Assembly: GCA_964450735.1 (NCBI GenBank)
Contig: CAYVDC010000007.1
Location: forward strand, 1,374 to 65,373
DNA length: 64,000 nt
Reading direction: 5' to 3'
DNA from: an uncultured Candidatus Saccharibacteria bacterium
GTDB lineage: Bacteria > Patescibacteriota > Minisyncoccia > Phycocordibacterales > UBA9973
Position 1 is the first letter of the stretch, and every line of letters begins with the position of its first letter. Under the pieces are notes generated by a model, which was given only the letters and a program-made list of their open reading frames with translations, was not told where the DNA came from and searched no databases. The position numbers and the translations under genes were made by a program. Below are positions 11,074 through 53,292 of this stretch, one piece after another.

Positions 11074-11076
11074 AAA

Positions 11077-12362: not shown

Positions 12363-12464
12363 ACGTGGTTTTGTTTTTATTTAGGTGAACCAAAGCGAAA
12401 CCCGCGATTTTCTCGCGACCTTTGCTTTGGTTACACCCTTATTTCTCAAGGTATATATTGAGTA

Positions 12465-12494: not shown

Positions 12495-12506
12495 ATATAT
12501 TGTAAA

Positions 12507-12534
12507 AGCCCTATTTCCAGGGCTTTTTTCTATA
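12507..12534. terminator. terminator hairpin downstream of smc-like gene
   Basis: AAAAGCCCT-atttcc-AGGGCTTTTTT. Confidence 0.5.
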
Positions 12535-12544
12535 CTGCACAAGG

Positions 12545-17769: not shown

Positions 17770-17852
17770 AAAATACTGTGTTTAAAAAGTGAAAAAAAAT
17801 ATTGTTCTGTAAAAAAACCTATCTATAGAACTTACCACACAATGTTCAATAG

Positions 17853-18482: not shown

Positions 18483-18551
18483 TCAATACCTTTTTCACGC
18501 ACAAAAACAGCCCCTTTCGAGGCTGTTTTATATGATTACTGAATCAATAGA

Positions 18552-19148: not shown

Positions 19149-19281
19149 AAGTTAGTTTTAATTACAAATAATATTAATAATAAATTAAGTATATATGATA
19201 CATCGAACGAGCGCTATATGTGAAATAAAAAACCGTCCCAGTATGTCGGAACGGTTTAAATAAAATAAGCGAAGGTATAAA

Positions 19282-19662
19282 TTATGAACGAGGCAAAACA
19301 CCAGATAATTCTTGAGTGGCCTCAAGTATGGCATCTATTCGTTGAATAAATTGACCGCCATCTCCTGCTGATAGAGTGGTAGATGAGTAAGTATATTCCT
19401 CAAAAAATTGCCGCATTTGTCTAAGGATACTTATCAGTGTATTTGCACGCGCAAGTCCTTGCGGTGGTTCACCTAATTCAAACGATGCTGGAATGAATTG
19501 TATTAATCCTCGTACTTCATTTGATTTACGCAAGATAACCTCAATGGGATTACCTCCGTGATCTTGCTGGTACAAAGGGAAATTAAACCAACAAAACATA
19601 ATAAATTCTAAAATCCTCTGTTCAACTTTCTGTGCTTTTTCGGTTTGTTCTGGAGTTAGCAT
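19282..19662 (-). CDS. hypothetical protein (126 aa)
   Basis: ORF only. Confidence 0.4.
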   Translation of the reverse strand: MLTPEQTEKAQKVEQRILEFIMFCWFNFPLYQQDHGGNPIEVILRKSNEVRGLIQFIPASFELGEPPQGLARANTLISILRQMRQFFEEYTYSSTTLSAGDGGQFIQRIDAILEATQELSGVLPRS

Positions 19663-24566: not shown

Positions 24567-25949
24567 ATGAGTAAAAAAACAGCCGCTTCCAAAAAAATGT
24601 GGAAGCTCGGAGCCAAAGAATTCAATACGCAATACTTTGACTACAACAAAGATGGAGACTTGGTTGTCAAAGAAGGCAACAATACATACAACCTCCGCTA
24701 CTTAGCGGAAAAAATGGGCACATCGCTCGAAATCTTTTTCCCGTTCATCGTTGAAGAACGCGTGGAGGATTTTCTTGATCTCACCACTTCCCTCATTAAG
24801 AAACTAAAGTACCAGGGAAAGTTCTTTTACCACTACCCAATGAAGGTAAACCAAAACAAGGAAGTTGTTATGGCCCTCATCGGCGAAGGCGCGAACATTG
24901 AGACAGCTTCATACAACGAACTCTACTTGGTCAAGAAAATGCTTGAGCAAGGTACTTTCAATACCAATATCCGCATCCTCTGCAATGGACCAAAGACTTC
25001 TGCATACATGTCACTCATCGACGAACTCCAGCACAAAGGCCTCCGTATTGTGCCAATCATCGAAGGACCGAACGAACTCTCAGCGCTTCAGCACTCACGC
25101 TACGACGTTGGTATTCGACTCGACATGCCGGTCAAAGCAGACTCGATCTGGAACAAGCCGATCGACCGCTTCGGATTCCGAGCGGATGAAATTTTGGAAA
25201 TCGGCAAATTCAAGCACCTCCGTATCCTTCACTACCACGTCGGTTCGCAGATCAACAAGGCAAATGATATTCTCGGCCCGATCAAGTACGCGCTCGATGT
25301 CTTCTTTAAATTAAAAGAAAAGAACCCATCACTCGACACGCTAGATATCGGCGGCGGCATGCCAATTCCCTACGAGCGTAAAAAAGGATACAACATCGAG
25401 AAGATCATGGAAAATATCTTCGAGCTTGCAAAGCGTGAAGCCAACAAGCGAGAAATGCCTCACCCAAACATCATCTGTGAATGGGGCCGCTACATGGTCG
25501 CTCCAGCTCAGGTCACTATCTACAAAGTTATCGATACCAAGAAAATCACCTACAAGAAAAGCGATGCCAAAAAATGGTACGTTATCGACGGCTCATTCAT
25601 GAATGACCTCCTCGATACGTGGGCAATCAAGCAGAACTGGTCAATAGTTCCCGTAAACAACGCTCGCGACGAAGATCTCACTGACGTATGGCTCGGCGGA
25701 TCAAGCTGCGACTCAGATGATATTTACAAAGGAACCGACGGAGCACTCCGACTTCCCGACTTCGATTCAAGCGAAGATGCAAAGCCCCTCATGATCGCAG
25801 TCCTCGACACCGGAGCATACCAAGACCCCCTCGCTTCACACCACTGCATGCTCTCCTCACCGCTCAAGCTCATCGCCCAAAACGGACACATCATGGTAGT
25901 CCGCAAACGCGAAACCCCTGACGACGTCGGAAAAGCGTTCGGATGGTAA
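24567..25949 (+). CDS. PLP-dependent (fold-III) decarboxylase, compact SpeA-like arginine decarboxylase
   Basis: YFDYNKDGDLVV resembles the SpeA N-terminus; PLP-Lys motif HYPMKVN; GEGANIETASYNEL; GGG loop LDIGGGMP. Good GGAGG RBS. Specificity for arginine is inferred from neighbouring agmatinase. Confidence 0.65.
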   Translation: MSKKTAASKKMWKLGAKEFNTQYFDYNKDGDLVVKEGNNTYNLRYLAEKMGTSLEIFFPFIVEERVEDFLDLTTSLIKKLKYQGKFFYHYPMKVNQNKEVVMALIGEGANIETASYNELYLVKKMLEQGTFNTNIRILCNGPKTSAYMSLIDELQHKGLRIVPIIEGPNELSALQHSRYDVGIRLDMPVKADSIWNKPIDRFGFRADEILEIGKFKHLRILHYHVGSQINKANDILGPIKYALDVFFKLKEKNPSLDTLDIGGGMPIPYERKKGYNIEKIMENIFELAKREANKREMPHPNIICEWGRYMVAPAQVTIYKVIDTKKITYKKSDAKKWYVIDGSFMNDLLDTWAIKQNWSIVPVNNARDEDLTDVWLGGSSCDSDDIYKGTDGALRLPDFDSSEDAKPLMIAVLDTGAYQDPLASHHCMLSSPLKLIAQNGHIMVVRKRETPDDVGKAFGW

Positions 25950-26082: not shown

Positions 26083-27105
26083 ATGCAAAACAACTTACCA
26101 ACACTTGAATTCATCCTCAAGCATTACCAAAACTTCAACGCTCGTGCGACAAAGGACGCAACTATCGCATACTGGCGCCACATGGAACAAGGCGGCAAGA
26201 TGTTCTGGGCAATTGCAGGTGCGATGTCATCAGCACAGCTCGGTATCGTTCTCGCTCCAGCAATCCGCGCAGGATTGATCCACGGTATTTCTTCAACTGG
26301 CGCAAACCTCGAAGAATCACTCTTCCGACTCGTTGCTCACAATCACTACAAGGACTTCCCAGACTACCGATACTTTACCAAAGAAGACGACACAAAAATC
26401 CTCGAAGACCGCATGCGCCGCGTCACTGACACATCGATCCCAGAAGACGAAGCATTCCGCGTCGTCGAAAAGCAGATCGTACCAACATGGATCAAAGCAA
26501 CCGAGGACGGAACACGAAAATTCTGGCATGAATATTTCTATGATCTCATCCAGTCAGTAGACAAGAAAGATCACCAAGGAAAGACTGAGGAATGCTGGCT
26601 CCTCGCAGCAGCTGAAGCAAAGCTCCCTATCGTTGTTCCAGGATACGAAGACTCAACATTCGGAAACATCTTTGCTGCTCACGTAAAAGCAGGTGAAGCT
26701 TCTGCATCAATCGCAAAATCAGGAATCGAATACATGGGAGAGTTTTATGACAACTACCAGGAACTCTCAAAAGGCGCTGGCGTAGGATTCTTCCAGATCG
26801 GCGGAGGAATCGCTGGTGACTTCCCAATCTGCGTCGTTCCATCACTCAAATACGATATGGAAGTCAAAGACGTAAAGCCGTGGGCTTACTTCTGCCAGAT
26901 CTCAGACTCAACCACTTCATACGGTTCATACTCAGGTGCAACTCCAAACGAAAAGATCACGTGGGACAAGCTCACTCAGGATACACCGATGTTCGTTGTT
27001 GAATCAGATGCAACCATCGTTGTTCCACTTATGCTCAACGCATTGATGGAAGCGAAAGCAAATCCAGAAGCAGCAAACAAACTCATCGCGCAGTACACAA
27101 AATAA
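26083..27105 (+). CDS. deoxyhypusine synthase-like protein (probable homospermidine synthase)
   Basis: DHS-family blocks AIAGAMSSA, GISSTGANLEE, VVPGYEDSTFGN, IGGGIAGDF. Confidence 0.75.
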   Translation: MQNNLPTLEFILKHYQNFNARATKDATIAYWRHMEQGGKMFWAIAGAMSSAQLGIVLAPAIRAGLIHGISSTGANLEESLFRLVAHNHYKDFPDYRYFTKEDDTKILEDRMRRVTDTSIPEDEAFRVVEKQIVPTWIKATEDGTRKFWHEYFYDLIQSVDKKDHQGKTEECWLLAAAEAKLPIVVPGYEDSTFGNIFAAHVKAGEASASIAKSGIEYMGEFYDNYQELSKGAGVGFFQIGGGIAGDFPICVVPSLKYDMEVKDVKPWAYFCQISDSTTSYGSYSGATPNEKITWDKLTQDTPMFVVESDATIVVPLMLNALMEAKANPEAANKLIAQYTK

Positions 27106-28243: not shown

Positions 28244-29143
28244 TTATCGCTTCTTCTTCCCTCCCAACAATTTTGTCTTGTAAAACGTATTGATCATATT
28301 GTAGACGATCTGCGCTGCGCCGTATTCGGTAAGTACATTGTCCGGAACTGGAGAAACTTCCACGACGTCTGCACCAACCAACTGTCGGCCTTCGATGACT
28401 GCTTCAAGCAATCGGAGCGTGTAGTACCATTCAAGTCCTCCCTGCACCGGTGTTCCCGTACCTGGCATATACGCAGGATCGATTCCATCCACGTCGATAG
28501 AAATGTAGACTTTCTTTGTTTTGACTGCGGCAATGACACGAGCGATCGATGGAATTTTTTCAGCACCCCATTCGAACACAGAAATATTTTTGTTAGCCAT
28601 GAAGTAGTCGTATTCGTCTTTTGAGAATGCGCGGATACCCACCTGTACGAGACTGTATCCCATTTCATGCGCGCGTCGCATGACTGCTGAGTGTGCGTAC
28701 GGAGTTGGATCAGTGTCATTGTAATCGCTGTCATCTTTACGGAGATCACAGTGCGCGTCGATCTGGAAAATAGTAACGTCTTTGGGATTATGCTTCTCTG
28801 AAAGCGCTTTGAGGGCTCCAAATGACATTGAGTGCTCTCCACCGAGGAGAAATGTAAAAGGAGCTGTGCTTGCCTTGCAGGCAGCAACAACGGCGTTGTG
28901 GGCGTCTTCCGGGGACATCTTTTGGAGACCAGCGATATCCTGAAGTGCGACTTTGATTTTTTCTGGTGATTCGACTCGGTATCGGCGATCGAAGAACTCG
29001 ATCTGAGTATTCAAACAGTCAATGACCTTTTGAGGACCTTCGGCAGTTCCCTTGTGGAACGAAGCGGTCTTGTCGTATGGAGCTGAGATAATAAGTACGT
29101 CCGGGTTGTCTTTGGGGCGTGAATTGATGATTGATTGTGGCAT
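28244..29143 (-). CDS. speB: agmatinase (arginase/ureohydrolase family)
   Basis: Ureohydrolase metal-binding blocks GGEHSMS, IDAHCDL, SIDVDGIDP. Its position next to an Arg-decarboxylase-like gene supports agmatinase over arginase. Confidence 0.75.
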   Translation of the reverse strand: MPQSIINSRPKDNPDVLIISAPYDKTASFHKGTAEGPQKVIDCLNTQIEFFDRRYRVESPEKIKVALQDIAGLQKMSPEDAHNAVVAACKASTAPFTFLLGGEHSMSFGALKALSEKHNPKDVTIFQIDAHCDLRKDDSDYNDTDPTPYAHSAVMRRAHEMGYSLVQVGIRAFSKDEYDYFMANKNISVFEWGAEKIPSIARVIAAVKTKKVYISIDVDGIDPAYMPGTGTPVQGGLEWYYTLRLLEAVIEGRQLVGADVVEVSPVPDNVLTEYGAAQIVYNMINTFYKTKLLGGKKKR

Positions 29144-34096: not shown

Positions 34097-36193
34097 TTAG
34101 ATATCGAGTTCCGCCATCTTGGCATGTGTCTGGATAAATGTTTTGCGAGGAGCAACATCAGATCCCATGAGCATGTCGAAGACTTTGTCTGCGTCAGCTG
34201 CGAGTTCGATGTTCACCTGTTTGATCACGCGTCGGCTTGGATCCATAGTTGTTTCCCAAAGCTCTTCGGCGTTCATTTCTCCCAAACCTTTGTATCGCTG
34301 AACGTTGATTTTGACTGCGCGAGGCTTTCCGTCTTTCATTTCAACGATCTCAACTTCTTCGCCTTCTTCTTCGCCAGATCCATCGCGTTCTGCTTGGGCA
34401 ACCATTTCGTCGAGGTCAACGTCTTTTTCTTGGCCCATGACGGCGACTTTTTCCTCGTCAGAATATGCATAGAAGATTTCCTTGCCTTTCTTGATCTTGT
34501 AGAGCGGCGGCTGAGCGATATAGATAAATCCACCATCAAGCAATGGCTTGAAGTATCGATACAAAAGCGTAAGGATCAGTGTTCGGATGTGCGCACCGTC
34601 AACGTCGGCATCGGTTGCGATGATGACCTTGTGGTAGCGAAGTTTTGAGATATCAAATGTGTCTCCGATCGCAGTTCCGAGAGCAACCACGAGGTTCTTG
34701 ATCTGTTCTGAAGCAAGCATGCGATCAAGGCGTGCTCGTTCAATGTTCAAGATCTTTCCTCGGAGCGGCAAGATAGCCTGTGTCTTTCGGTCACGGCCGG
34801 TCTTTGCAGTACCGCCCGCTGAGTCTCCTTCCACAATAAAGAGTTCGGATTCTTCGGCGCTCTTTGACTGACAGTCAGCGAGTTTGCCTGGAAGTGTCAT
34901 TCCCTCCAAAGCGCCTTTTCGCAAGATTGAATCCTTTGCAGCCTTTGCTGCTTTTCGAGCTCGCACTGCGAGAATCGCCTTGTTGATGATTGATTTTGCC
35001 TGATCTGGGTTTTCTTCAAGGAAGTTAGCAAATGCATCTCCGAAGACCGTTGCTACAGCGCCCTGAGCCTCCATAGAGCCGAGTTTAGCCTTTGTCTGGC
35101 CCTCGAACTGGATCTCAGCAAGTTTGACTGAGATGACCGCTGTAAGACCTTCAAGAACGTCTTCACCGGTAAATCCGCCGTCAGCTTCTTTGATGAGGTT
35201 ATTTTTCTTGCCGTAGGTATTGAGCAGGCGTGTAAGCGCAGTCTTGAAACCGGTTACATGCGTTCCGCCTTCGGGAGTATGGATGTTGTTCGCAAACGGA
35301 ACGATCTTGGTTTCGATTTCGTCGGTATATTGCAATGCAATTTCAACGCCAACATTATCCTGTTCTTTTTCAACATAGAAAACGGATTCCTGAATTGGCT
35401 TCAATCCTTGGTTGTAGTATTTGACCAATGACATCAAGCCACCTTCGAAATAGAACGAGTATGATGGGACTTCTAGCCCGAGGTCGCCAAACCAATATGC
35501 ATCGTCAAGTGAGAATTTCTTGTTGAACAATGTATCAGCATCCATCTCGCGTGCATCAATGATAGTGAGCTTCAAACCTTTGACGAGATATGCCTGCTGG
35601 CGCATGTGGTTGACCACGGTGCTCCAGGTGAACTTTACGCCTTCTTTGAAGATTTCTGGGTCAGGAGAAAATGTTGTGATCGTTCCATGCAATTTTGAAG
35701 AACCAACTTTTTTGACATTGGCTTTCTTTTTTCCCTGAGAGTACTCTTGCATAAAGATGCCGCCGTCTCGGTGAACTATTACCTTTGTGTATATTGAAAG
35801 CGCGTTAACAACAGAAGCACCCACACCGTGGAGACCTCCAGACACTTTGTAACCAGATCCTTCGCCGCCGAATTTTCCACCGGCATGAAGCGTGGTCATA
35901 ACCATTTCAAGCGCTGAAAGTTTTGTCTTTGGGTGAATGTCGGTTGGAATACCGCGACCATTGTCCACGACACGAATGAAGTTGTCAGGAAGAAGCGTGA
36001 TCTCGATGCGGTTTGCATGGCCAGCCATCGCTTCGTCGCGAGAGTTATCGAAAATTTCCCATATCAAATGGTGAAGACCATCAGGACCAGTTGATCCGAT
36101 GTACATACCAGGACGTTTTCGGACAGGTTCAAGTCCCTCGAGCACTTGGATTTGCTCGGCACCGTATTTAGCTTTCGATTCGTCTTTTGCCAT
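34097..36193 (-). CDS. gyrB: DNA gyrase subunit B (start placed at MAKDESKAKYG)
   Basis: GHKL ATPase (GLHHLIWEIFDNSRDEAMAGH), TOPRIM (EGDSAGG), acidic C-terminal insert. Start codon ATG is the revcomp of cat at 36191-36193. Confidence 0.9.
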   Translation of the reverse strand: MAKDESKAKYGAEQIQVLEGLEPVRKRPGMYIGSTGPDGLHHLIWEIFDNSRDEAMAGHANRIEITLLPDNFIRVVDNGRGIPTDIHPKTKLSALEMVMTTLHAGGKFGGEGSGYKVSGGLHGVGASVVNALSIYTKVIVHRDGGIFMQEYSQGKKKANVKKVGSSKLHGTITTFSPDPEIFKEGVKFTWSTVVNHMRQQAYLVKGLKLTIIDAREMDADTLFNKKFSLDDAYWFGDLGLEVPSYSFYFEGGLMSLVKYYNQGLKPIQESVFYVEKEQDNVGVEIALQYTDEIETKIVPFANNIHTPEGGTHVTGFKTALTRLLNTYGKKNNLIKEADGGFTGEDVLEGLTAVISVKLAEIQFEGQTKAKLGSMEAQGAVATVFGDAFANFLEENPDQAKSIINKAILAVRARKAAKAAKDSILRKGALEGMTLPGKLADCQSKSAEESELFIVEGDSAGGTAKTGRDRKTQAILPLRGKILNIERARLDRMLASEQIKNLVVALGTAIGDTFDISKLRYHKVIIATDADVDGAHIRTLILTLLYRYFKPLLDGGFIYIAQPPLYKIKKGKEIFYAYSDEEKVAVMGQEKDVDLDEMVAQAERDGSGEEEGEEVEIVEMKDGKPRAVKINVQRYKGLGEMNAEELWETTMDPSRRVIKQVNIELAADADKVFDMLMGSDVAPRKTFIQTHAKMAELDI

Positions 36194-36274
36194 AGTATGT
36201 ATGTTGATTATAAAAATAAAAAGCGCACCCGGAAACACTAGAAACAGTCGATTTGTACCTAAAAAGTATACCAT

Positions 36275-36340: not shown

Positions 36341-38713
36341 TTACACAGATTCTTGTAGTGGTGTTTCAGGCTCTTCTGCTGGAGCAGCAGGAGTAGGGGT
36401 TTCTTCTGGAACTGGAGTGTCGATAACTGGATTTTCTAATGGTGGAACTACTTCTTGTGTTCCTTCTGTTGTAGGCTCGACAGGTTGCAGTTCTGGCTCA
36501 GGAACTGGATCAGGTTCAGGGGCAGGACTAGGAGCAGGGACAATAACTGCTGTTCCGCACTCACCCGCAGTTTTTACAAAATCACCGTTAGCCAGTGTTA
36601 CGCAGTATGGAAGATGAGAAACAGTATCGTACATTGTAAATCCAGACGGTGTTTCTGGTGTTCCAAAGACAATGCTTTTTACATGAAGTACCATATCTGC
36701 GAATCGGCTTGCGAGCGAACTTGTGTCGCCTATTCCCTGAATAGAAGAAATTTTTATATCAAGTTCCTGAACAGCCTTGGTTAATACTGGAATGATTCCA
36801 GTATAGTTAAGCGAAAGATATTTGCCTTCTGTTACCAAATCTGGGAGAACAGTGCGGACTTCCTGGGCTATGAAGCCGATCTGTGGAGATCCGTCGCTAA
36901 TCATTCGGTATGTTACAGGACGCAGTGAATTGATGGTTTGCAAACCGTATGAGCTCGATGAAATATTTTGTTTCAATCGTTGGTCAGAAGAAATATTCAA
37001 GCTTTGTGTAATAACTCCGGTTGCGAAGATTTTTCCATCAACCTGGAGAAGTGCAGACCCATCGTCGATCTGATTGTTAGTATTTTCAAAATTATTGATA
37101 CCGATTCCAACTTTTCCATTTTTCAAAATTGTAAGAGCATCACTGTCTGAGCCTGTCCCCACACCATTACCAACAACGAAGAGTCGGTCCCTTGCATCAA
37201 AATCCAACGGGTCAAATGGTGTATAGTTTGTAGTGCTCAATCCTACTGACACTTCCGCGAACGATTTTGAAGATAATCTATAACCAATTGCGGTTGAGAC
37301 CTTGCCGCTCGCGGTTGCCTGCTGACCCATTGCAGTAGCATACTGGCCACTTGCAACAGTACCACTACCAAACGCAGTTGAAGTCGAACCTGAAGCAAGC
37401 GTACTCTGTCCGAACGCAGTTGCATTTTCATTGCTTGCGACAGAACCTGTGCCAAACGCGGTTGAAGCGTCAGCGCTTGCCGTACTTGATATTCCAAAAG
37501 CAGTTGCACCTGTACTGGACGCTGTTGTGGCAAAACCAAACGCAGTAGAAGCTATCCCAATGGAATCAGTATCTACTCCAAAGGCCACTGAACCATCATC
37601 ACCGGCATAGGTATTTGTTCCAAACGCTACAGTAAAGCGACCAACTGCATCTGTATTGTAACCGAAGGCCACGGCATAATCCCCAGAAGCGTTATTGCCG
37701 GAACCGAACACTGTCGTAAAATCACCGCTAGAAATAGTTCCGCTTCCGAGCGCTACACTGTGAAGGCCTGAAGCAATTGGTGCATCCAAACCTCGATCAT
37801 TGTCAGCAAAACCGATAGCAACGGAACGGTTGCCAATGTTGCCACCTTGCCATAAGCTGCCATTGACTGAACCAAGGCGTATCGCTTTTTGATCATAATT
37901 GAAGAAGAATTTTTGTTCCTCATTGAATTGGGTTACTGGAGTCATCTGCCACTTTTCTCCATCAATATAATTTGAAGAAACAAATGTAACATATACTCCA
38001 TCCTGCAATAGATCTGGAACTCCCGCATTGATTGGATTTCCTGTTGAAACAGTTACACCATTCAAAGTAAAAGTATAATCCGTTCCGCTTGGTTCAATTA
38101 TTACTGCATATACATCTGTGATACTGGAACCTGTATATGGTCCTTCAAAACCGACATCAGGGAATGAGCCAAAGTTTATAGGATTAGTTGTTGGTCCGAC
38201 GATTATCGTTGTTCCAGTATTATTATTAAAACTATCTGAATTAAATATAAATCCATTGCTTTTTACAGCCAGGCGATTTTGCCCGAGCATAATTTCGTTA
38301 GCTTCACTGGTTACTGCTCCATTCCCAATTGCGAACGAATTTGCCTGGCTTGCTGTACTAGCAGTTCCAAGTGCAATATTACCGATTTGCCCGAATTTCG
38401 CCATTTGAGAATTGTTCGTCTTAATGACAAAATCGGCTGCATCCGTCGTCCCAACAAAATTCGTTGTTCCTCCGTCAGTGCCTGCGTTTCCGGTAAGCCC
38501 CCAACCAACACCGTCACCAGTATTTTGAAAACAATTAGAAGAACCAGGAGCGCAACCTGGGTCGAGAATAGAATCTCCGAACAAATACCCGCCAGATGGA
38601 GGAACCGTGCCTGGAGAAAGCTGCGCAGAAAAAACTACAGCCCCATAACCCAAAACTGACAATACAGCTACGGAAAGAGAGACGAATTTTTTATACGGAA
38701 AAGCACGGAACAT
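36341..38713 (-). CDS. secreted fibre-like surface protein, paralog 1: signal peptide, conserved Cys-containing N-module, Gly/Ala/Ser/Thr-rich repeats (Hep_Hag/beta-helix-like), peptidase S74 intramolecular chaperone autoproteolysis domain, Pro/Glu-rich C-terminal tail
   Basis: N-terminus VLGYGAVVFSAQLSPGTVPPSGGYLFGDSILDPGCAPGSSNCFQNTGDGVGWGLTGNAGTDGGTTNFVGTTDA. The repeat region has recurring ..ATAFG..STASG.. units. The S74 block is SDQRLKQNISSSSYGLQTINSLRPVTYRM...IGFIAQEV...PVLTKAVQEL. The tail is PAPSPAPEPDPVPEPELQPVEP... Confidence 0.75.
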   Translation of the reverse strand: MFRAFPYKKFVSLSVAVLSVLGYGAVVFSAQLSPGTVPPSGGYLFGDSILDPGCAPGSSNCFQNTGDGVGWGLTGNAGTDGGTTNFVGTTDAADFVIKTNNSQMAKFGQIGNIALGTASTASQANSFAIGNGAVTSEANEIMLGQNRLAVKSNGFIFNSDSFNNNTGTTIIVGPTTNPINFGSFPDVGFEGPYTGSSITDVYAVIIEPSGTDYTFTLNGVTVSTGNPINAGVPDLLQDGVYVTFVSSNYIDGEKWQMTPVTQFNEEQKFFFNYDQKAIRLGSVNGSLWQGGNIGNRSVAIGFADNDRGLDAPIASGLHSVALGSGTISSGDFTTVFGSGNNASGDYAVAFGYNTDAVGRFTVAFGTNTYAGDDGSVAFGVDTDSIGIASTAFGFATTASSTGATAFGISSTASADASTAFGTGSVASNENATAFGQSTLASGSTSTAFGSGTVASGQYATAMGQQATASGKVSTAIGYRLSSKSFAEVSVGLSTTNYTPFDPLDFDARDRLFVVGNGVGTGSDSDALTILKNGKVGIGINNFENTNNQIDDGSALLQVDGKIFATGVITQSLNISSDQRLKQNISSSSYGLQTINSLRPVTYRMISDGSPQIGFIAQEVRTVLPDLVTEGKYLSLNYTGIIPVLTKAVQELDIKISSIQGIGDTSSLASRFADMVLHVKSIVFGTPETPSGFTMYDTVSHLPYCVTLANGDFVKTAGECGTAVIVPAPSPAPEPDPVPEPELQPVEPTTEGTQEVVPPLENPVIDTPVPEETPTPAAPAEEPETPLQESV

Positions 38714-38807
38714 GTGCCTAAATTATATCATATTGGCTTGATAATACTAATAAAAAAGCCAGCCCCATTACTGGAAACTGGCTCTATAAAATTTAAAATC
38801 AAAGTTG

Positions 38808-40493
38808 TTACTGCACTACTACTTTTGCGGTAGTATCACCCGCTTTTAGGAAATAAATTCCTTTCGGCAAGTCTAATTGCAGTTGCTGTTTTGGAGAAGT
38901 AAGCTGATACGAAATCTGCTTGCTACCAATTACGTCATAAACATCTACCTTACCCAGGTTACGATAATCCTCGCTGGTTACAAAAAATGTACCATTATTA
39001 GGATTTGGGAATACTGTAAATGCGGTTTTAGAAACCGAAGCAACACCGGTCGGCGTGGCTATGGCAGGATATGTTTCAACCCGTAATTTGCTTGCATCCG
39101 CTCCGAACATCTCTGCTCGTATACCAGCGGGGAATTTGTAAATAAGGTTGTTGTACCTCATTTTCATATCAACCGTAGTGCCAGCAGGGATCGTTCCCTG
39201 TTGTACATACTGCACAGCTTTACTTTCAACCTGCAATGAGTTATCCGATGCATCAGGATTAAATATTTCTATTACTGAATTTTGGACAACCGTATCGAAT
39301 GGCGCTGCGCCAAGCGTGAACGGATTGTTTGCAGTACTGCTTACATAATACATCGGCAACCGCATGTCGGGGCCAATCTGCACATCTCTGTTTTGAGCAG
39401 GAATGTGTGTAGTAGCGAAATATTTCTCTTTCCAAAAAACGGAGCTCGCTAGATCAATCTGATTTCCATTTACGATAGCGAAATTAAATTTCGTAAAAAT
39501 CGTCATCAAGGCTGAATCTGACGCTCCAGGAAACATGTTTCTGAACACATCGAGCAACGCATCGATACCTACAGTATCACCAGCATGCCTGCCGTCATTA
39601 AAGGCTTGTGCCGCTTGAGCGGTACCAGTGTCGATAATAAACGTTGGAAACACATAACTAAACGTTATGGATTGTCCTGGAAGGAGTTTTAATTTTCCGT
39701 CCATATCCATAGTAGGAAACTGCTCCATTGGTGCGTAGGTTACTGGGTTGCGAGTGAAGAAATCTGCATACATCTCATTGCTAACTTCTGTTAGTTCGTA
39801 ACAGGAACGCGTTGGTGTTGTATAGCAATATCTTTTGGATGAATCCAGCCAAGAACGATGTTGAATGATATCTTCGGCAGACATGTAATTGTCGATCGTA
39901 CCGGGAACCTTATCCAAGGACCGCGGCTCGCCATCATCAGTATCAACCAAAATAGTATCGTTATTGTGGAACAATTCACCAAGGGTATGACCCTCGGTAG
40001 TCACAATACGCAGTGAGTCAGCTGAAATCATTCCTGTTTCCACCGCTACATGGTTGAAGAAGTTTTCACGTTCTCCGCACATGTGCGAGGCATTAGCCAG
40101 AAAAAATCCGCATGGGGTAAACTGCTTGCGTGCAACAAACCGGTCGAATCCATTGGGGCCGTACGAAGTGTACTCGGGATTCCGCAGGTGTACGATGTAC
40201 GGGCTTTTAACAAGCCTGGTCATCTCTCTGGTAAATCCGAAGGGGTCGCCTGTTGAAGCCATGTGATCATAATATGTTTGCTTGGTAGCAAAAATTATAT
40301 TATCACTGTCTTCAAACTGGGTTAGTAGGTAGAACTCCATGGGTACTGAATCGGTGTTTTGAATCGTCACACTAAAGCTGTCATTCGGGTTTGGAACATT
40401 CGCCGGAAAGCCTTTGAATAGTTCAACAACTTGTGCGTGTGAGGTAAAGGTAAAAAGCATTGCGGCAAAAGCCAGTAGATAGAATTTTTTCAT
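38808..40493 (-). CDS. secreted protein with C-terminal T9SS-type (Por) sorting domain
   Basis: Signal peptide MKKFYLLAFAAMLFTFTSHAQ. Last ~70 aa FPNPNNGTFFVTSEDYRNLGKVDVYDVIGSKQISYQLTSPKQQLQLDLPKGIYFLKAGDTTAKVVVQ match the Por_Secre_tail pattern (NP..., YD..G, LP.G(I/V)YF.K, K.V..). Confidence 0.6.
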   Translation of the reverse strand: MKKFYLLAFAAMLFTFTSHAQVVELFKGFPANVPNPNDSFSVTIQNTDSVPMEFYLLTQFEDSDNIIFATKQTYYDHMASTGDPFGFTREMTRLVKSPYIVHLRNPEYTSYGPNGFDRFVARKQFTPCGFFLANASHMCGERENFFNHVAVETGMISADSLRIVTTEGHTLGELFHNNDTILVDTDDGEPRSLDKVPGTIDNYMSAEDIIQHRSWLDSSKRYCYTTPTRSCYELTEVSNEMYADFFTRNPVTYAPMEQFPTMDMDGKLKLLPGQSITFSYVFPTFIIDTGTAQAAQAFNDGRHAGDTVGIDALLDVFRNMFPGASDSALMTIFTKFNFAIVNGNQIDLASSVFWKEKYFATTHIPAQNRDVQIGPDMRLPMYYVSSTANNPFTLGAAPFDTVVQNSVIEIFNPDASDNSLQVESKAVQYVQQGTIPAGTTVDMKMRYNNLIYKFPAGIRAEMFGADASKLRVETYPAIATPTGVASVSKTAFTVFPNPNNGTFFVTSEDYRNLGKVDVYDVIGSKQISYQLTSPKQQLQLDLPKGIYFLKAGDTTAKVVVQ

Positions 40494-40580: not shown

Positions 40581-40606
40581 AAAACCCCTCTAATAGAGGG
40601 GTTTTT
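40581..40606. terminator. terminator downstream of fibre paralog 2
   Basis: AAAACCCCTCTA-ata-GAGGGGTTTTT. Confidence 0.55.
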
Positions 40607-40613: not shown

Positions 40614-43229
40614 TTATGATGCAGGAGCGATTTCTGGAGTAGGTTCTGGGGCAGGTTCAGAAGCTGGTTCTGGAGCAGGTTCTGGGGTTGGTTCTACGGT
40701 AGGTTCTGGAGTTGGTTCTAGTGTCGGTGGGGTTTCTACCAGCGGCTCTTCTGTCACCGTTTCCGGCTGAGGTTCTGTCGGGGTTTCCGAAACAACTGGT
40801 TCTTCTTGCGGAACTGGTTGCTGTGTCTGGCCGCCAGAATTATAGTTGTTTTGCTGAGGCAATAGCTGCTTGAGCTGCTGAAGTTGCGCACGTGTTATAC
40901 ATTCATCCGCATATCCTTCTTCTGACAAACAAATTTCATGAGTAAATATTCGCGCGATGCCATTGCTTGCATTTCCCAACCATCCGCTGATCGATGACAA
41001 AAATGTGCTGCTTGGGGTTGTAAGAGTATCCATTGAAGCTACTTTCAAATTGAGCTCTTGGACTGATTTAATGAGCAACGGGATAAATGTCTTGTAATCA
41101 ACCATCATATATCCATCTGTTCGATGACCTACAGCCTCTGGATAGAGTGGCTCAACTTGCTGCGCCAAGACTCCGGTATGCTGCTTATTATTGTCATTGA
41201 TGATAGATTGATCGTACATAAAATCAACCACTCTGATATTTTTCAAAACATCCAAACCGTATGAGGTATCAATGATATTTTGTTTTGTGCGCTGGTCGGA
41301 AGGAGCGGTCGTATCAATTGTGTTTGTTCCAATATAGAGAGTAGATGAGCCTGAACCGCTAGTAACGTCGCTAATCTTGTTGCTATCGCTATCAACACCA
41401 ATACGGAGACCAGTACGGAAAAAGTTCTGTGCTTCAGCATCGTCAATAAAGAGAGCATACTCCATACCTGAAGTCCCCTGGAGTGACGCATTGCTGAAAT
41501 AAATACCATAGACATCCGCAGCAGTCAGTGAAGGAACATCCGTTACACCATCAAAGGTGCTGCTGAAATTTATACCTTTGATTAAGTTTATTGCTTCAAT
41601 ACCTGGCTGATAGACACTTCCTTGCATTCCAGAAGAAAAGTTGATTCCATTCGTACTAAAAATAGAACCGGTGTTTCGAATGAACGAAGTAAGATGCATA
41701 ACGTCCGCATTATTAACAATACCTCCACTCTGTACAGTCACTCGAGCATCAATTCCAAAAGCATTATTGATGGTTGCGCCCGAAACGTTACTTGAAACCA
41801 CACTGTTGATTCCATATGCAGTATTTACGACTCCGGTTGCACTTAAGTTGGTTACACTGCCGTTAATTCCTTTCATGGCGTTAACAGTTCCTGTTCCCAA
41901 ATTTCCCGCCAGATTGTTTAAGCCATACAAATTATCAATATTGCCGGAACCTTGATGAAGTGCAGTACTATTGATACCGTTCATATTACTGATTGTTCCA
42001 GATGAAGTAGGGCTTGAAGCAACAGAAGCAGTAATACCCGCTATTCCACCAGTACCTGAGGCAGTAGAAACGTTAAAAGCGCCACCGTCCCAAACTGTTG
42101 AACCTGAGAGCGTAGAATATGCGGTATTGGTTGTATTTCCGGTAGCAGTCAAGGTGCCTTCAAATGTATTAAAGGTTCGGTTTGTAGAAGATGCAACTTC
42201 TGTAGATGCAATACCTCTGAAGCGGCCATTTAATTTCAAACGAATTGAAGTTGCATCAGAATCTCCTTCCCAGTTATTGATGCCGAATGCCGAGTTTCCA
42301 TTTTTTAGAATAGTAAACGCATCATTTTTGTCTGGCCATACACCCAATAGTGAATTATTGCCCGAGTCATTATCTCCATTACCGATACTAAACACCCGGT
42401 CTGTCGGTGACAAAAATTGCCCCAAACCAAGTGGAGTCGGTGTGTAATCTGTTCCATATGCACCAATAGATGTTTCATATGCAGAACGAGCGAAACTGCT
42501 CTGTCCAAAAGCAGTTGAAGCATAACCCGAGGCAATAGTGTCATAACCAAAAGCTGTCGAAGCAGAGTTGCTTGCTAATGTACCCTGACCAAAAGCAGTT
42601 GAGTCTGAGCCTGAAGCGGTATTGCTTGTTCCAAACGCGGTTGCGTTTTCTTCAATAGCACTTGTTCGGTCTCCAAATGCAGTAGCATATGGGCCAGTCG
42701 CCTTTGTACCAACGCCCCATGCAGTCGAAAGCTGTCCAGAAGCAAAAGGATAATCATAGTTACCTGTGCTTCCGCCCCACGCCATCGCTCCTTGTCCAGA
42801 CGCTGTTACTGCAATATTGCCATTAGTATCTGGTCCAACAAGAACACCATCAGTGTAATTTCCAAATGCGATATTTCCATTTTGGCCAAACCGGCCTATT
42901 TCTGCTCCATTGGTTTTTACAACAAAATCTACAGCATCAGTTGTTCCGATGAAATTTGTTGTTCCTCCGTCAGTTCCTGCATCACCGGTAAGAGCCCACC
43001 CCACACCATCCCCAGTATTTTGATAACAGTTGGCACTGCCCGGAGCACATCCTGGATTGAGAATACTGTCACCTGCTGCATATCCGCCACTTGGTGGCGT
43101 TGTGCCATCAGCTAGTTGCGCACCAAACACAACCACTCCATATCCGACAATGGAAAGCAGTGTGATAAAAAAAGAAAGAATCTTTCGGTGGGAAAAAAAC
43201 AATGATTTCATGTACAAAAAGTATACCAC
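40614..43229 (-). CDS. secreted fibre-like surface protein, paralog 2 (same architecture as paralog 1; 871 aa)
   Basis: Conserved N-module LSIVGYGVVVFGAQLADGTTPPSGGYAAGDSILNPGCAPGSANCYQNTGDGVGWALTGDAGTDGGTTNFIGTTDA. Gly/Thr/Asn-rich repeats. S74 block SDQRTKQNIIDTSYGLDVLKNIRVVDFMY...TGVLAQQVE...IPLLIKSVQELNLK. Pro-rich tail PEPTVEPTPEPAPEPASEPAPEPTPE. Confidence 0.75.
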   Translation of the reverse strand: MVYFLYMKSLFFSHRKILSFFITLLSIVGYGVVVFGAQLADGTTPPSGGYAAGDSILNPGCAPGSANCYQNTGDGVGWALTGDAGTDGGTTNFIGTTDAVDFVVKTNGAEIGRFGQNGNIAFGNYTDGVLVGPDTNGNIAVTASGQGAMAWGGSTGNYDYPFASGQLSTAWGVGTKATGPYATAFGDRTSAIEENATAFGTSNTASGSDSTAFGQGTLASNSASTAFGYDTIASGYASTAFGQSSFARSAYETSIGAYGTDYTPTPLGLGQFLSPTDRVFSIGNGDNDSGNNSLLGVWPDKNDAFTILKNGNSAFGINNWEGDSDATSIRLKLNGRFRGIASTEVASSTNRTFNTFEGTLTATGNTTNTAYSTLSGSTVWDGGAFNVSTASGTGGIAGITASVASSPTSSGTISNMNGINSTALHQGSGNIDNLYGLNNLAGNLGTGTVNAMKGINGSVTNLSATGVVNTAYGINSVVSSNVSGATINNAFGIDARVTVQSGGIVNNADVMHLTSFIRNTGSIFSTNGINFSSGMQGSVYQPGIEAINLIKGINFSSTFDGVTDVPSLTAADVYGIYFSNASLQGTSGMEYALFIDDAEAQNFFRTGLRIGVDSDSNKISDVTSGSGSSTLYIGTNTIDTTAPSDQRTKQNIIDTSYGLDVLKNIRVVDFMYDQSIINDNNKQHTGVLAQQVEPLYPEAVGHRTDGYMMVDYKTFIPLLIKSVQELNLKVASMDTLTTPSSTFLSSISGWLGNASNGIARIFTHEICLSEEGYADECITRAQLQQLKQLLPQQNNYNSGGQTQQPVPQEEPVVSETPTEPQPETVTEEPLVETPPTLEPTPEPTVEPTPEPAPEPASEPAPEPTPEIAPAS

Positions 43230-43254: not shown

Positions 43255-45060
43255 TTAACGAATTTGCCAGCCCTCGTGGCCTTCGATCACCTTCTGAATG
43301 CTTTCCATGATTGGATTTATCTCTGCATCGGTCAATGTTCGGTCTATAGCCTGGAAAACAAGGTGAAATGCATATGAGGTTCGCCCTTCTTTGGTAAATT
43401 GGTCGAAGAGGTCTGGCTCGCGCGCAAGAAGAGCGGTTCCCAATTTTGTATACAGCGACTTTAATTCTTCTGAAGTTACACTTTCTGGGACCCAGACAGC
43501 AATATCGCGGGAAATAAATGGGTACTGGCTCCACTGAATAAAATGCTGCGTATTTTCATTTGTCGGAAGAATTTTTTCGTATGAATCCCCTGCGGTTATC
43601 ACATTCTTTTCGCAGAATTCTTCGAGGGTCATTTCTATTACTCCTTTTTTGTCTGCAAAAGCAACATGAACAATCTCGCCTTCTTTTGGAAACACCGTTC
43701 CAATTTCAAAAATCTTCATGTCAGAAATTCCAAGGAGCGGCGCATTCAAGCGATTCATTTCATATGCCTCTTTCAGTCCTTCTGCGAGGTCTGTTCTGAG
43801 CGCACCTTTATCGCCAACCCCGCGCGCAACTTCGAATATTCCCTTTTTGCGGAATGCATAGGTGATCGTTTCGCGGTAACCATCAGCAACAAGCTTTGCG
43901 CGAGCTGCATTCATTTTGTAAAAAATTTCGTTCTTTTTTGGATTTGGAGGTAGTTCAACTGGAACAGCCTGGATTTTTTCTAATCCATACAGTCTTGCAA
44001 CTTCTTCGGCAATGTCGTGCTGTCCGGTGAGATCAAGACGTAGATATGGAACAGCCAATGTCCCAATATCTCCTACTCCGGATATCTGATATCCATAATC
44101 AGTCAGTATCTTTATTATTTCCCCTTCCGTGAGAGCAGTGCCAAGATACTTATTTATTTTAGAAATTGAAAAATTCACTACGCGACCAATTTCAGGTTTT
44201 GGGTAGACGTCGACGATTTCTTCAAAAACAGCATCAGGACACATTTCAGCAATAACTGCACTCAAGTCGCGCATTCCCCATGGAGCATGTTCAGCAAAAA
44301 GATCATTCTCAAATCGCTTTGCAGAATCAGAAAGCAAGTTCAAACGACGTGCAGTTTTACGAACAGCGACAGGATCAAAGTTCGCGACTTCGAGAACAAT
44401 GTCAGTCGTTGTGTCAGTAACTCCAGAATCAAGTCCCCCCTTCACCCCTGCAAGCGCGAGCGGTTTTACAAAATCCATAACCACAGTATCCGTAGCTTTC
44501 AATTTGGCGACTACTTGCTCACGTCCGAGAACCGGCAGCTCCTGTCCTTCGCTGGCATTGGTAATACGAATGCCTCCTTCAATTTTTGAAAGATCAAACG
44601 CATGGCATGGCTGTCCGCAATCGTACATGACCAGGTTTGTTGCGTCGACGATGTTATTAATCGAGCGTTGGCCGATTGATTCGAGATGCTTCACTATCCA
44701 TTCCGGTGATGGACCAACTTTGATATTGCGAACTATTCGCCCCATATATCGTCGGCAATTTTCTGTTTGAATTTCAATTTTGAGTTCAGTTGGTTTTGAT
44801 TCTGGAACTTTATAGAGAGGAGTTGGGTCTTTGAATTTGAAACCGAGAAGTCCGGCGACTTCTTTTGCCACGCCGTGGTGCGAAAGCAAATCATGTGCAC
44901 GGTTTGGAAGAATATTCAAATCCAAAACAGTATCGCCGTTCGGCAATTTTTCGATGCCTTCCACTTCGCAGAGTTTGAACGTCAAAATATCTGCCAACAC
45001 TTCAGGAGTTGGAAGCTCGCCGTCTACATACCATTTAAGCCAGTCGTAAGAAATTTTCAT
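43255..45060 (-). CDS. pheT: phenylalanyl-tRNA synthetase beta subunit (short form, 601 aa)
   Basis: MKISYDWLKWYVDGELPTPEVLADILTFKLCEVEG is the PheT N-terminus; B3/4 and B5 regions recognisable. Confidence 0.9.
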   Translation of the reverse strand: MKISYDWLKWYVDGELPTPEVLADILTFKLCEVEGIEKLPNGDTVLDLNILPNRAHDLLSHHGVAKEVAGLLGFKFKDPTPLYKVPESKPTELKIEIQTENCRRYMGRIVRNIKVGPSPEWIVKHLESIGQRSINNIVDATNLVMYDCGQPCHAFDLSKIEGGIRITNASEGQELPVLGREQVVAKLKATDTVVMDFVKPLALAGVKGGLDSGVTDTTTDIVLEVANFDPVAVRKTARRLNLLSDSAKRFENDLFAEHAPWGMRDLSAVIAEMCPDAVFEEIVDVYPKPEIGRVVNFSISKINKYLGTALTEGEIIKILTDYGYQISGVGDIGTLAVPYLRLDLTGQHDIAEEVARLYGLEKIQAVPVELPPNPKKNEIFYKMNAARAKLVADGYRETITYAFRKKGIFEVARGVGDKGALRTDLAEGLKEAYEMNRLNAPLLGISDMKIFEIGTVFPKEGEIVHVAFADKKGVIEMTLEEFCEKNVITAGDSYEKILPTNENTQHFIQWSQYPFISRDIAVWVPESVTSEELKSLYTKLGTALLAREPDLFDQFTKEGRTSYAFHLVFQAIDRTLTDAEINPIMESIQKVIEGHEGWQIR

Positions 45061-45063: not shown

Positions 45064-45966
45064 TTATAAATCAAAAAAATCAGTATCGATTTTATATATT
45101 TTTAACTCTTGTTCTTGGGTTACCCCTAAACCAACACTAAGCATTAACTCGGCCAGCTTTTCCCCATTAATAAGCACAATCTGAACATGGGAAATTGCAG
45201 CAACAGAAACAGCATCATTATTGAAATCAGAGGTAGTAATAAAAACGCCTTTCTTTGCATTTTTACCTAAAATATCTCCGATAAATTGCGACACTTCCCT
45301 TCGGCCAACCTTATTACCCCATCTTTTGGCTTGTACATATATTTTTTCAAACCCGAGATGGTCCCCCTTAATAATACCATCTATACCACCATCACTTGTA
45401 TAGCGGGTAACTTCGCCGACGCCGTACCCCATTTTAACCAATAAATCTACGACTAATTTTTCAAATAATTGAGGATGCATGGATGCCACTTTTTCCAAAA
45501 TCTCTTCCTTTACAAGATCATTGATTTTGTTTACATTGGCAATTATATTTTCTTGAGGAGTAATATTTGAATCTTCCGAAACATCTTCGCCTTCGCTCCT
45601 ATTTTTTTCATCCTTATTTCCCCAGGTCTTCACATCCCAAAAATCAGGAAATTTCTTTAGATCTTTGACACTTAAACTTGTTAGGTTTTGTTTTAGTAGA
45701 TCTAGCCCCCTTTCTGTAATAATATATTTCCTTTTCTCCTGTGTTTTATCTATCAGCTTCGCTTTAAAAATAAAAGTTCTTGCCCATGCCAGTCTGTCGA
45801 GAAAAATTTTTCTTCCTGGAGTGTTTGGATATTGGGCGTTTTTATCTTCATCAGTCAAATGAACCTTTTGGGCAATAACATCTTCAAAAACCTGCCAATC
45901 ATGCGGCTGGCCATCCTTAAAGCATTCTAATAATGGGAGCATCAGCTCATTAAATTTGGGAATCAT
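45064..45966 (-). CDS. mrr: Mrr-family restriction endonuclease (Mrr_N winged-helix + Mrr_cat PD-(D/E)xK nuclease)
   Basis: The C-terminal block EKLVVDLLVKMGYG...YTSDGGIDGIIKGDHLGFEKIYVQAKRW is the Mrr_cat signature (D...IDG...E.K, VQAKR). The N-terminal winged-helix-like region (MIPKFNELMLPLLECFKDGQPH...) resembles Mrr_N. The gene sits 4 nt from the pheT start and 14 nt from the pheS stop. Confidence 0.8.
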   Translation of the reverse strand: MIPKFNELMLPLLECFKDGQPHDWQVFEDVIAQKVHLTDEDKNAQYPNTPGRKIFLDRLAWARTFIFKAKLIDKTQEKRKYIITERGLDLLKQNLTSLSVKDLKKFPDFWDVKTWGNKDEKNRSEGEDVSEDSNITPQENIIANVNKINDLVKEEILEKVASMHPQLFEKLVVDLLVKMGYGVGEVTRYTSDGGIDGIIKGDHLGFEKIYVQAKRWGNKVGRREVSQFIGDILGKNAKKGVFITTSDFNNDAVSVAAISHVQIVLINGEKLAELMLSVGLGVTQEQELKIYKIDTDFFDL

Positions 45967-51948: not shown

Positions 51949-53292
51949 TTATTTCAACCCCTTAATTATCTTCACAAACTGCTCTCCTCGATCATACTCA
52001 TTCTTGAACAATTCAAACGATGAGAACGCTGGCGAGAACAAAACAATATCACCCTTTTGTGCTGACTTCACAGCTCTTGCCACCTGCTTCTTCAGGTCAA
52101 GTTCTTCGCTAAAGGTGAATCCCTTCTGCGCAAGCAGCGGCTTTAATTTTTCGGTTCCAGAACCTTTCAATAATACAACCTGGTTTGCGAACTCTGGAAT
52201 TGCGTTTGCAAGTGCTTTTGCATCAAGGGCTTTGTCGGTACCACCAGCAAGGAGGATGAGGTTATGGGGTTTTGCGAGCGGGGCGAGCGCAGCGAGCCCC
52301 GCCACGCATGCCTCAGGAGTGGTCGCACAAGTATCATTGAAAATCGAAATTCCTTTGTACTTTCGTACAAACTCCAAGCGTCCCGGTACGCCCTTGAATG
52401 ATTCGACGGCTGCTTTGATTTTTGTCTCAGGGATTTTTAAATATCGCGCAACAGCAACAGCACATGAAGCATTTTCTCGTACATGCTCACCTGGGGTTTT
52501 AAGCTTCCAGTTTTTTGGAATGTCAGCGCTTGTTGTGGCGATCAACTTCCCTTTCGTTTTGCCTTTTACCAACGGCATTAGCGCCGATCGAACAACTAAA
52601 ACGTCGTCTTTTTTTTGATGCAGAAATATCTGCGCCTTGTCTTTAAAATAGAGATCAATATCGTTCTTGTAGTAATTCATGTGATCAGGCATGAAGCTCG
52701 TGAAAACAGCAATCTCAGGAGAAATTTGTGCCTCGCCAAATCCTTGCAACTGCCATGAAGATAATTCAAACACAACGAAATCGCCTTTTTTGACTTTTGA
52801 CAGGAGTGGGAGTGCCGCAGTGCCTTTGATATTTCCGCCAAGATGCGCGCGCTTGCCTGATTTTTTGAGAATATGGTAAATCAGTTCAGTCGTAAATGTT
52901 TTGCCTCGCGTGCCGGTAATACCGATCATGCGAACGTCCGGAGCAAATTTGAAAAACAGCGTTTCGTCCATTTCGATCGGAATGCCATTTTTTCTCGCAT
53001 GGGCAATATACAGAGAATCCAACGGAACTCCTTGGCCTTTGATGATAAAATCTTTGTTCTCAAAATCCTGCATGCGATGCTCGCCCAAAACAAAGGTAAT
53101 ATTTTTGTATCCCTTGAGCGCATCGATCGATGACTTTAGTTCTTTTGCGGTTTTAAGGTCTGTGACGGTAACCGAGGCGCCGTTTTTTGAGAGGAACTGG
53201 ATATCACCCAAAAGCTTGCCCAAAAGGCCAAGGCCCAGGACGGTGACCTGTTTCCCTTTGCAATAGGCTCTGAAATCCTTGGCTGACTGCAT
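51949..53292 (-). CDS. murD: UDP-N-acetylmuramoylalanine--D-glutamate ligase
   Basis: VTVLGLGLLGKLLGDIQFLSKNGASVTVTD, GITGTRGKTFTTELI. Confidence 0.9.
   Translation of the reverse strand: MQSAKDFRAYCKGKQVTVLGLGLLGKLLGDIQFLSKNGASVTVTDLKTAKELKSSIDALKGYKNITFVLGEHRMQDFENKDFIIKGQGVPLDSLYIAHARKNGIPIEMDETLFFKFAPDVRMIGITGTRGKTFTTELIYHILKKSGKRAHLGGNIKGTAALPLLSKVKKGDFVVFELSSWQLQGFGEAQISPEIAVFTSFMPDHMNYYKNDIDLYFKDKAQIFLHQKKDDVLVVRSALMPLVKGKTKGKLIATTSADIPKNWKLKTPGEHVRENASCAVAVARYLKIPETKIKAAVESFKGVPGRLEFVRKYKGISIFNDTCATTPEACVAGLAALAPLAKPHNLILLAGGTDKALDAKALANAIPEFANQVVLLKGSGTEKLKPLLAQKGFTFSEELDLKKQVARAVKSAQKGDIVLFSPAFSSFELFKNEYDRGEQFVKIIKGLK

Follow-up and report, generated by a model that had tools for sequence, protein, structure and literature searches.

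A Bacteroidota-type T9SS sorting domain on a secreted protein encoded in a surface-fibre cassette of a Paceibacteria lineage

Introduction

The type IX C-terminal domain (CTD) is taken to be a diagnostic marker for cargo of a type IX secretion system (T9SS) in the Fibrobacterota–Chlorobiota–Bacteroidota (FCB) superphylum. Cargo proteins with a type A CTD, e.g. NucA of Flavobacterium johnsoniae (8glk_D) and RgpB of Porphyromonas gingivalis (7pq4), start with a Sec signal peptide and continue with a passenger, a flexible linker and a C-terminal beta-sandwich of about 70 aa; this CTD is an independent, cleavable domain that is not needed for folding of the passenger. The T9SS is confined to the FCB group (PMC11205867), and Patescibacteria, also referred to as the Candidate Phyla Radiation (CPR), are considered to be monoderms that lack an outer membrane (PMC12102498, PMC11665869). 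Here, we describe a gene for a secreted 561-aa protein that ends in such a CTD and is located between pheT and gyrB, beside genes for surface fibres, on a 64-kb stretch of DNA (termed the window; contig CAYVDC010000007.1 of assembly GCA_964450735.1) from an uncultured member of the Paceibacteria. The gene and its parts, in coordinates of the window, are the following.

38808..40493, minus strand: complete gene of the secreted protein, 561 aa (open reading frame (ORF) list; stop codon 38808-38810)
40431..40493, minus strand: signal peptide, residues 1-21, MKKFYLLAFAAMLFTFTSHA with the boundary before Q (sequence inspection)
39054..40430, minus strand: N-terminal domain (N-domain), residues 22-480 (~460 aa), of an uncharacterised family (no Pfam/NCBIfam match; AlphaFold2 (AF2) model)
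39918..40094, minus strand: candidate catalytic core, residues 134-192, with C139 (MCGER), H169 (GHTLGE) and D184/D186 (VDTDDGEP) (conservation, AF2, hhalign)
39021..39053, minus strand: flexible linker, residues 481-491 (low model confidence); the recombination breakpoint between N-domain and CTD falls here
38811..39020, minus strand: T9SS type A CTD, residues 492-561 (PF18962, TIGR04183, PDB CTD matches, Foldseek, dN/dS)

The protein shares with type A cargo the order of Sec signal peptide, passenger, flexible linker and C-terminal beta-sandwich, with scores above the cut-offs of the curated models. Unlike such cargo, it belongs to a monoderm-type CPR bacterium with no T9SS context detected, the window yielded no second CTD protein, its gene lies within a hypervariable surface-fibre cassette, and its passenger domain is uncharacterised. 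The domain call itself is not new, as the NCBI pipeline would label the protein 'T9SS type A sorting domain-containing protein'; new are a CTD that appears to be selectively maintained without a T9SS, the apparently recurrent acquisition of the gene by Paceibacteria, its linkage to surface fibres, and the uncharacterised passenger family.

Identity of the C-terminal domain

The domain is a genuine Bacteroidota-type T9SS sorting tail. With the complete protein as query, PF18962 (Por_Secre_tail) matched residues 494-558 at 33.8 bits (E 4e-8; gathering cut-off 27) and TIGR04183 matched residues 494-561 at 33.3 bits (cut-off 23), the latter over the full model (1-72), and the C-terminal 110 aa scanned by themselves gave 38 bits. 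The matched region lies at the extreme C-terminus (492-561 of 561), after the linker. The four orthologs of the clade are all recognised by TIGR04183/PF18962 as well (33.6-38.6 bits), and with TIGR04183 the CPR copies of the family score in the same range as the non-CPR copies (33-41 vs. 32-42 bits).

The family profile matches solved T9SS CTDs, with 8glk_D (NucA in the SprA translocon complex) at E 7e-10 and further matches to 7pzj (a flavobacterial lipase), 8glj_D, and the CTD of RgpB (7pq4). An AF2 model calculated from a 38-sequence family alignment attained a mean predicted local distance difference test score (pLDDT) of 85, with values mostly >90 in the N-domain and ~80-89 across the CTD; five close sequences alone gave a pLDDT of 39. 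In the model, an independent C-terminal beta-sandwich follows a disordered linker (pLDDT <50 at residues 478-488), and Foldseek aligned this sandwich to 8glk_D with a probability of 1.00, a target-normalised template modelling (TM) score of 0.72 and a root-mean-square deviation of 3.0 Å, and to 7pq4 with a TM score of 0.49.

By inspection, the N-terminus (MKKFYLLAFAAMLFTFTSHA followed by QV) reads as a Sec-type signal peptide; homologues have an equivalent n-h-c region that ends in A-Q. The original prediction, which was made from the letters of the window alone, had placed the protein at 38808-40493, which is exactly the extent of the ORF, and had read its last ~70 residues as a TIGR04183 pattern; the significant matches to both models, above their curated cut-offs, and the beta-sandwich in the AF2 model bear this reading out.

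Lineage and conservation of the locus

The cassette that contains the CTD gene is delimited by two housekeeping genes.

43255..45060, minus strand: pheT, left border of the cassette
40614..43229, minus strand: upstream fibre gene, 871 aa, with N-terminal membrane anchor, YadA_head repeats, Peptidase_S74 and Pro/Glu-rich tail (Pfam)
36341..38713, minus strand: downstream fibre paralog, 790 aa, in this genome only (Pfam, paralogy)
34097..36274, minus strand: gyrB, right border of the cassette and lineage marker

In a search with GyrB, 80/80 best genome relatives were Patescibacteria/Paceibacteria; the best of these was 94% identical (a Candidatus Paceibacterota metagenome-assembled genome, MAG), and the others, at 67-78%, carried the labels Paceibacteria, Nomurabacteria, Zambryskibacteria and 'Saccharibacteria'. 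PheS, PheT, ThrS and a UvrD-like protein are encoded in synteny with Paceibacteria MAGs and are 76-98% identical, and the gene content of the window is of the reduced CPR type (a 240-aa PheS, a 601-aa PheT, a 760-aa SMC, Mur ligases, and the NusB-NUDIX and YkuD/S11/PGA_cap fusions described below). The original prediction had noted a reduced, Patescibacteria-like context and had kept open the alternative that the lineage is really one of the FCB group, to be settled by placement of gyrB; the relatives of GyrB and the gene content agree with the former, and an FCB lineage for the contig is rejected on the GyrB relatives and the housekeeping synteny.

The order pheS-pheT-fibre-CTD gene-gyrB is common to five independent assemblies, i.e. 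the window and the related loci L001 (a 200-kb contig of an NCBI MAG), L003 (Joint Genome Institute, JGI), L004 and L091; in addition, the protein is 100% identical to an NCBI protein (P0001) on a 66.7-kb contig. In the next relatives, L005 and L008 (GyrB ~75%), pheT directly abuts gyrB, which indicates that the fibre gene and the CTD gene are a clade-specific insertion. A chimeric joining of a Bacteroidota fragment to a CPR contig during assembly or binning, as the Bacteroidota-like signal peptide and CTD might suggest, has next to no probability: the identical insertion between pheT and gyrB recurs in the five assemblies, the G+C content of the gene is the same as that of its flanks, and the gene diverges in step with the clade. 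This recurrent gene order in independent assemblies excludes contamination or chimerism, and the artefact is thereby refuted.

On L003, gyrB, thrS, the fibre gene and the CTD gene are each broken into several ORFs (11300..13661 and 17764..19626); these splits are probably frameshift errors of the assembly, not pseudogenes.

Distribution and origin of the protein family

An exhaustive HMMER search with the N-domain against 1.84 G representative proteins retrieved relatives amounting to 43 representatives. PF18962 matches 21/38 full-length family members, and most members have 'AQ'-type signal peptides and end in YPNP...G.Y...K..V. The non-CPR contexts include a 599-kb contig (L095) that encodes a second CTD protein (choice-of-anchor B family) as well as two-component systems, a Ser/Thr kinase and GuaA; L096, where the neighbour is a 1357-aa Ig_7 + Por_Secre_tail protein; and the surroundings of P0013 with DUF748, DUF6600 and rhomboid genes. 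Both L095 and L096 encode two CTD proteins within ~21 kb.

Three Paceibacteria lineages carry the family, the clade of the window, L093 and L086. L093 (GyrB 67-71% identical to Paceibacteria GyrBs) encodes a member with an intact CTD (P0016; 40.9 bits). L086 (JGI 3300056623, a 746-kb contig) encodes a homologue of 31% identity that has an S74 fibre gene on each side (7269..13635), at an unrelated site of the chromosome, between EF-G/SIMPL and SOD/L28. Thus, the linkage of fibre and enzyme genes appears, from these gene orders, to be conserved across independent acquisitions.

In a neighbour-joining tree (451 columns, 200 bootstrap replicates), the clade of the window received 100% support, as did the grouping of P0014 (non-CPR) with P0016 (CPR), and monophyly of the CPR copies received 0%. 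The simplest reading of the polyphyletic CPR copies would be repeated transfer, with at least three transfers into Paceibacteria from T9SS-type bacteria. The donors were probably Bacteroidota, to judge from gene context, CTD density and the style of the signal peptides, and for groundwater Patescibacteria, Bacteroidota rank with the more frequent sources of genes from outside the CPR (PMC12455944). The original prediction had described the CTD as either horizontally acquired or convergent: acquisition is supported by the occurrence of the family in CTD-rich non-CPR genomes and by the polyphyly of the CPR copies, and the matches to the HMMs and to solved structures rule out a convergent origin. 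The prediction had also considered that the CTD is used by a different export route; the signal peptide by itself would suffice for the protein to leave a monoderm cell.

On L093, the CTD-bearing member lies ~1.3 kb downstream of gyrB and adjoins an 825-aa PG_binding_1 protein (5180..9429); the vicinity of gyrB may repeatedly serve as a landing site for variable surface genes.

Divergence, domain exchange and selection

Within the clade, identities are 93-97% for GyrB and 96-98% for ThrS, compared with 72-77% for the upstream fibre and 59-66% for the CTD protein; housekeeping proteins are mostly 92-98% identical, with PheS, PheT and the UvrD-like helicase at 76-80% in some pairs. Between L004 and L091, the synonymous distance (dS) is 0.34 for gyrB, 0.49 for the N-domain and 2.35 for the CTD; between the window and L091, it is 0.95 for gyrB, >3 for the N-domain and 0.88 for the CTD. 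Such synonymous distances point to allele replacement rather than to mere acceleration, and the contrasting values of the two domains to separate histories of N-domain and CTD, with the breakpoint at the linker. By these distances, the cassette is a hot spot of diversity, with alleles of the N-domain and of the CTD apparently exchanged independently of each other.

For pairs with unsaturated dS, the ratio of non-synonymous to synonymous distance (dN/dS) is ~0.10 for the CTD (window vs. L091/L003; dN 0.092 and dS 0.88 over 70 codons) and ~0.15 for the N-domain (L004 vs. L091). The divergent CTD allele of L004 has the top TIGR04183 score of the clade (38.6 bits), and the N-domain of the same protein stayed orthologous. 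The low dN/dS together with this intact, high-scoring allele indicates that the CTD is maintained by purifying selection.

Type IX export and the role of the domain

In a TIGR04183 scan of the C-termini of 107 ORFs in the window, the 561-aa protein was the only match. Outside the family of the N-domain, no PF18962 match was found among 1,979 ORF C-termini in 1.42 Mb of Paceibacteria loci, all of which surround gyrB, in a two-stage screen of limited sensitivity (a home-made HMM, then the official models). The CTD is therefore not a general tag in this lineage, with a single CTD protein in the window and none in the related loci, vs. two per ~21 kb in L095 and L096. Among the window proteins scanned by Pfam, 0/33 were T9SS components, and none was encoded by a gene for outer-membrane biogenesis. 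No paper that deals with T9SS or Por CTDs of CPR, Patescibacteria or Parcubacteria was found in searches of the literature.

Our preferred reading, to which we assign a probability of roughly 60%, is that of a horizontally acquired, Sec-exported enzyme encoded in a hypervariable fibre cassette, with a repurposed CTD that has taken on a new function as a beta-sandwich for binding or docking and does not serve type IX export. The ancestral protein would have been an ordinary T9SS cargo in FCB-type bacteria, probably Bacteroidota; its gene would have reached the CPR clade together with, or beside, a gene for a membrane-anchored surface fibre, and the two would have been inserted as a cassette between pheT and gyrB. 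The protein would be exported across the single membrane by its signal peptide alone, and the CTD would not be used for type IX export, since neither an outer membrane nor a T9SS is expected. It would be kept as a folded beta-sandwich in a new role, most plausibly docking of the enzyme to a surface partner; candidate partners are the envelope or the fibres of the CPR cell itself or, alternatively, the surface of a host or partner cell.

Several points weigh against this reading. The CTD of the L086 homologue (P0010) is internally deleted and other members (e.g. P0013 and P0014) have lost the CTD, so that the domain is dispensable in some settings, and the purifying selection on it may reflect only needs of folding or stability. 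The first-stage HMM of the screen was too family-specific and missed two bona fide CTDs (on L095 and L096), and divergent CTDs could thus be overlooked; the absence of T9SS genes holds only for the 33 proteins scanned within the 64-kb window. Bacteroidota as donors are deduced from context, CTD density and signal-peptide style, and the loci L084, L088, L089 and L094-L096 are putatively assigned to Bacteroidota. Finally, the hydrolase assignment of the N-domain (see below) is a lead only, without support from Pfam or Foldseek and with P = 0.03 in hhalign.

Some, if limited, credence is due to the view that the CTD was merely carried in with the transferred gene, lacks a function of its own and persists through folding or stability. 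This would be in line with the deletion or loss of the CTD in P0010, P0013 and P0014, with a signal peptide that suffices for export from a monoderm cell, and with the lack of further CTD proteins and of T9SS parts in the window; however, a dN/dS of ~0.1 over 70 codons at a dS of 0.88 and TIGR04183 scores that are uneroded relative to the non-CPR copies speak for a constraint on the domain, L004 has gained a divergent and fully intact CTD allele with its N-domain still orthologous, and the passenger of T9SS cargo folds without the CTD. Very improbable, in our view, is a type IX-like export route of the clade's own, or an unusual outer layer, for which the CTD would be a true sorting signal. 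The CTD is intact and conserved, and most of such a genome would lie outside the 64 kb analysed here, but users of the T9SS have many CTD proteins and there is only one in the window and none in the 1.42 Mb, no T9SS part was found among the 33 proteins scanned, and Patescibacteria are considered monoderm (PMC12102498, PMC11665869).

A more specific proposal, which we consider unlikely, is directed at the host: the CTD of the secreted protein would dock from outside onto PorV or PorU/PorZ of a Bacteroidota host, so that the enzyme and, via the fibres, the epibiont would be tethered to the host surface, or host secretion would be jammed, and the sorting signal would have become a host-recognition device. 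We know of no documented case of capture of an exogenous CTD by PorV or PorU, which counts against the proposal, as does the retention of the fibre linkage on L086 despite a truncated CTD. In its favour are a CTD under purifying selection, into which intact divergent alleles are swapped, with no visible use in the lineage; the acquisition of the family by Paceibacteria at least three times from T9SS-type genomes; the physical linkage of the gene to genes for surface fibres in two CPR lineages that are independent of each other (the clade of the window and L086); a hypervariability of the kind found at host-interaction loci; and the suggestion that Bacteroidota are frequent donors or partners of Patescibacteria (PMC12455944).

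A bona fide CTD is selectively kept in a lineage that is expected to lack both an outer membrane and a T9SS, and the annotation 'T9SS type A sorting domain-containing protein' in CPR MAGs is not evidence of a T9SS. Recurrent transfer of genes to Paceibacteria from T9SS-type bacteria would point to physical association, possibly with hosts; to our knowledge, there are no cultured host pairs for the class Paceibacteria. The combination of fibre, enzyme and CTD represents a testable candidate host-interaction module, and includes a new, uncharacterised family of putative secreted enzymes.

The N-terminal domain

The N-domain (searched as residues 21-490) has no Pfam or NCBIfam match, relaxed thresholds included, and its fold has no match in the Foldseek top 50 of the PDB and none in BFVD. 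Across the 38 sequences, H169 and D184 never vary and C139 and D186 are retained in at least 90%, within the family motif QCG-[helix]-TG.F..R.V..GH...E...G.W..D.DPG. The AF2 model places C139 at the N-terminus of a helix (139-153), and H169 and D184 on the next two strands.

These residues agree with the transglutaminase-like core of peptide:N-glycanase (PNGase; yeast Png1, 1x3w) in their order and spacing (C-30-H-15-D), in the position of the Cys at a helix N-terminus with His and Asp on the following strands, and in the local motifs 'CGE', 'H...E' and 'W..D'. In an hhalign comparison with yeast and mouse PNGase, for which the fragments were verified against 1x3w and 2f4m, the C/H/D residues were in register (36% identity over 44 columns) in a weak match (P = 0.03, probability 1.7%). 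Unlike transglutaminases and PNGase, the N-domain gives no PF01841 match at E <= 10 (38 members), and its Foldseek top 50 in the PDB contain no fold of that type; it is also far larger (~460 aa) and has further residues that are conserved (K96, Y222, Y242 and N448). As a lead, the N-domain may be a putative Cys-His-Asp hydrolase of the transglutaminase/PNGase-like type.

The fibre genes and their surroundings

The two fibres that flank the CTD gene, which had been taken for paralogs from the start, are indeed 60% identical across their N-terminal 138 aa, and both contain YadA_head repeats and Peptidase_S74. The ortholog of the upstream fibre adjoins the CTD gene in L001, L003 and L004, and in the same three loci the CTD gene and gyrB have no downstream fibre gene between them.

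In phage tailspikes, the S74 domain, an intramolecular chaperone, is the cleaved C-terminus. Both YadA_head repeats and Peptidase_S74 are shared by the flanking fibres with phage tailspike/endosialidase fibres and YadA-type adhesins; unlike trimeric autotransporter adhesins, however, the flanking fibres have no C-terminal YadA membrane anchor (Pfam/NCBIfam scans), and unlike phage tailspikes, they carry a membrane anchor at the N-terminus and show no phage context. In scans of viral sequences, no relative of the CTD protein turned up, and none of the flanking fibres save for the S74-domain match. A phage origin of the cassette is not supported, given that the CTD protein has no viral relative.

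A third Peptidase_S74 fibre paralog of 794 aa is encoded at 60110..62494 (minus strand) and adjoins a 574-aa collagen-triple-helix-repeat protein (58237..59961, minus strand), as a second surface-fibre locus. In all three fibres of the window (36341..38713, 40614..43229 and 60110..62494), the S74 domain is non-terminal, with ~140-170 residues beyond it, about 160 in the two flanking fibres, that include a Pro/Glu/Thr-rich tail.

Terminator-like hairpins on both sides suggest that the CTD gene is monocistronic.

38755..38785, minus strand: intrinsic-terminator-like hairpin with a 12-bp stem and a T run, just past the stop codon of the CTD gene
40585..40599, minus strand: terminator-like hairpin past the upstream fibre gene

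In this genome only, a gene for an Mrr-type restriction endonuclease (Mrr_N + Mrr_cat; 45064..45966, minus strand) is inserted between pheS and pheT; the corresponding position of L001 is occupied by a 108-aa ORF.

Other features of the window

The fusion of NusB and Nudix that the original prediction had listed is real (15898..16803, minus strand; NusB at residues 7-136, NUDIX at residues 170-279). Another fusion, a 768-aa protein (8767..11073, plus strand), unites YkuD (an L,D-transpeptidase), Peptidase_S11 (a D-Ala-D-Ala carboxypeptidase) and PGA_cap.

Shine-Dalgarno sequences are absent from almost all genes of the window, L086 and L093, and their usage does not separate CPR from Bacteroidota loci. 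In many genes, -10-like boxes (GATATAAT, GGTATACT, GGTAAAAT, GGTATAGT) end 5-9 nt 5' of the start codon, e.g. in 36341..38713, the upstream fibre gene (here taken as 40614..43211), 51949..53292 and 60110..62494 (all minus strand) and in 6696..8756 (plus strand), and likewise in L086 and L093; this arrangement suggests that leaderless transcripts are widespread in this Paceibacteria clade.

Genes for an Orn/Arg decarboxylase (24567..25949, plus strand), a deoxyhypusine-synthase homologue (26083..27105, plus strand) and an arginase-family protein (28244..29143, minus strand) are located near one another, and may represent a polyamine or hypusine-like module in this reduced genome.

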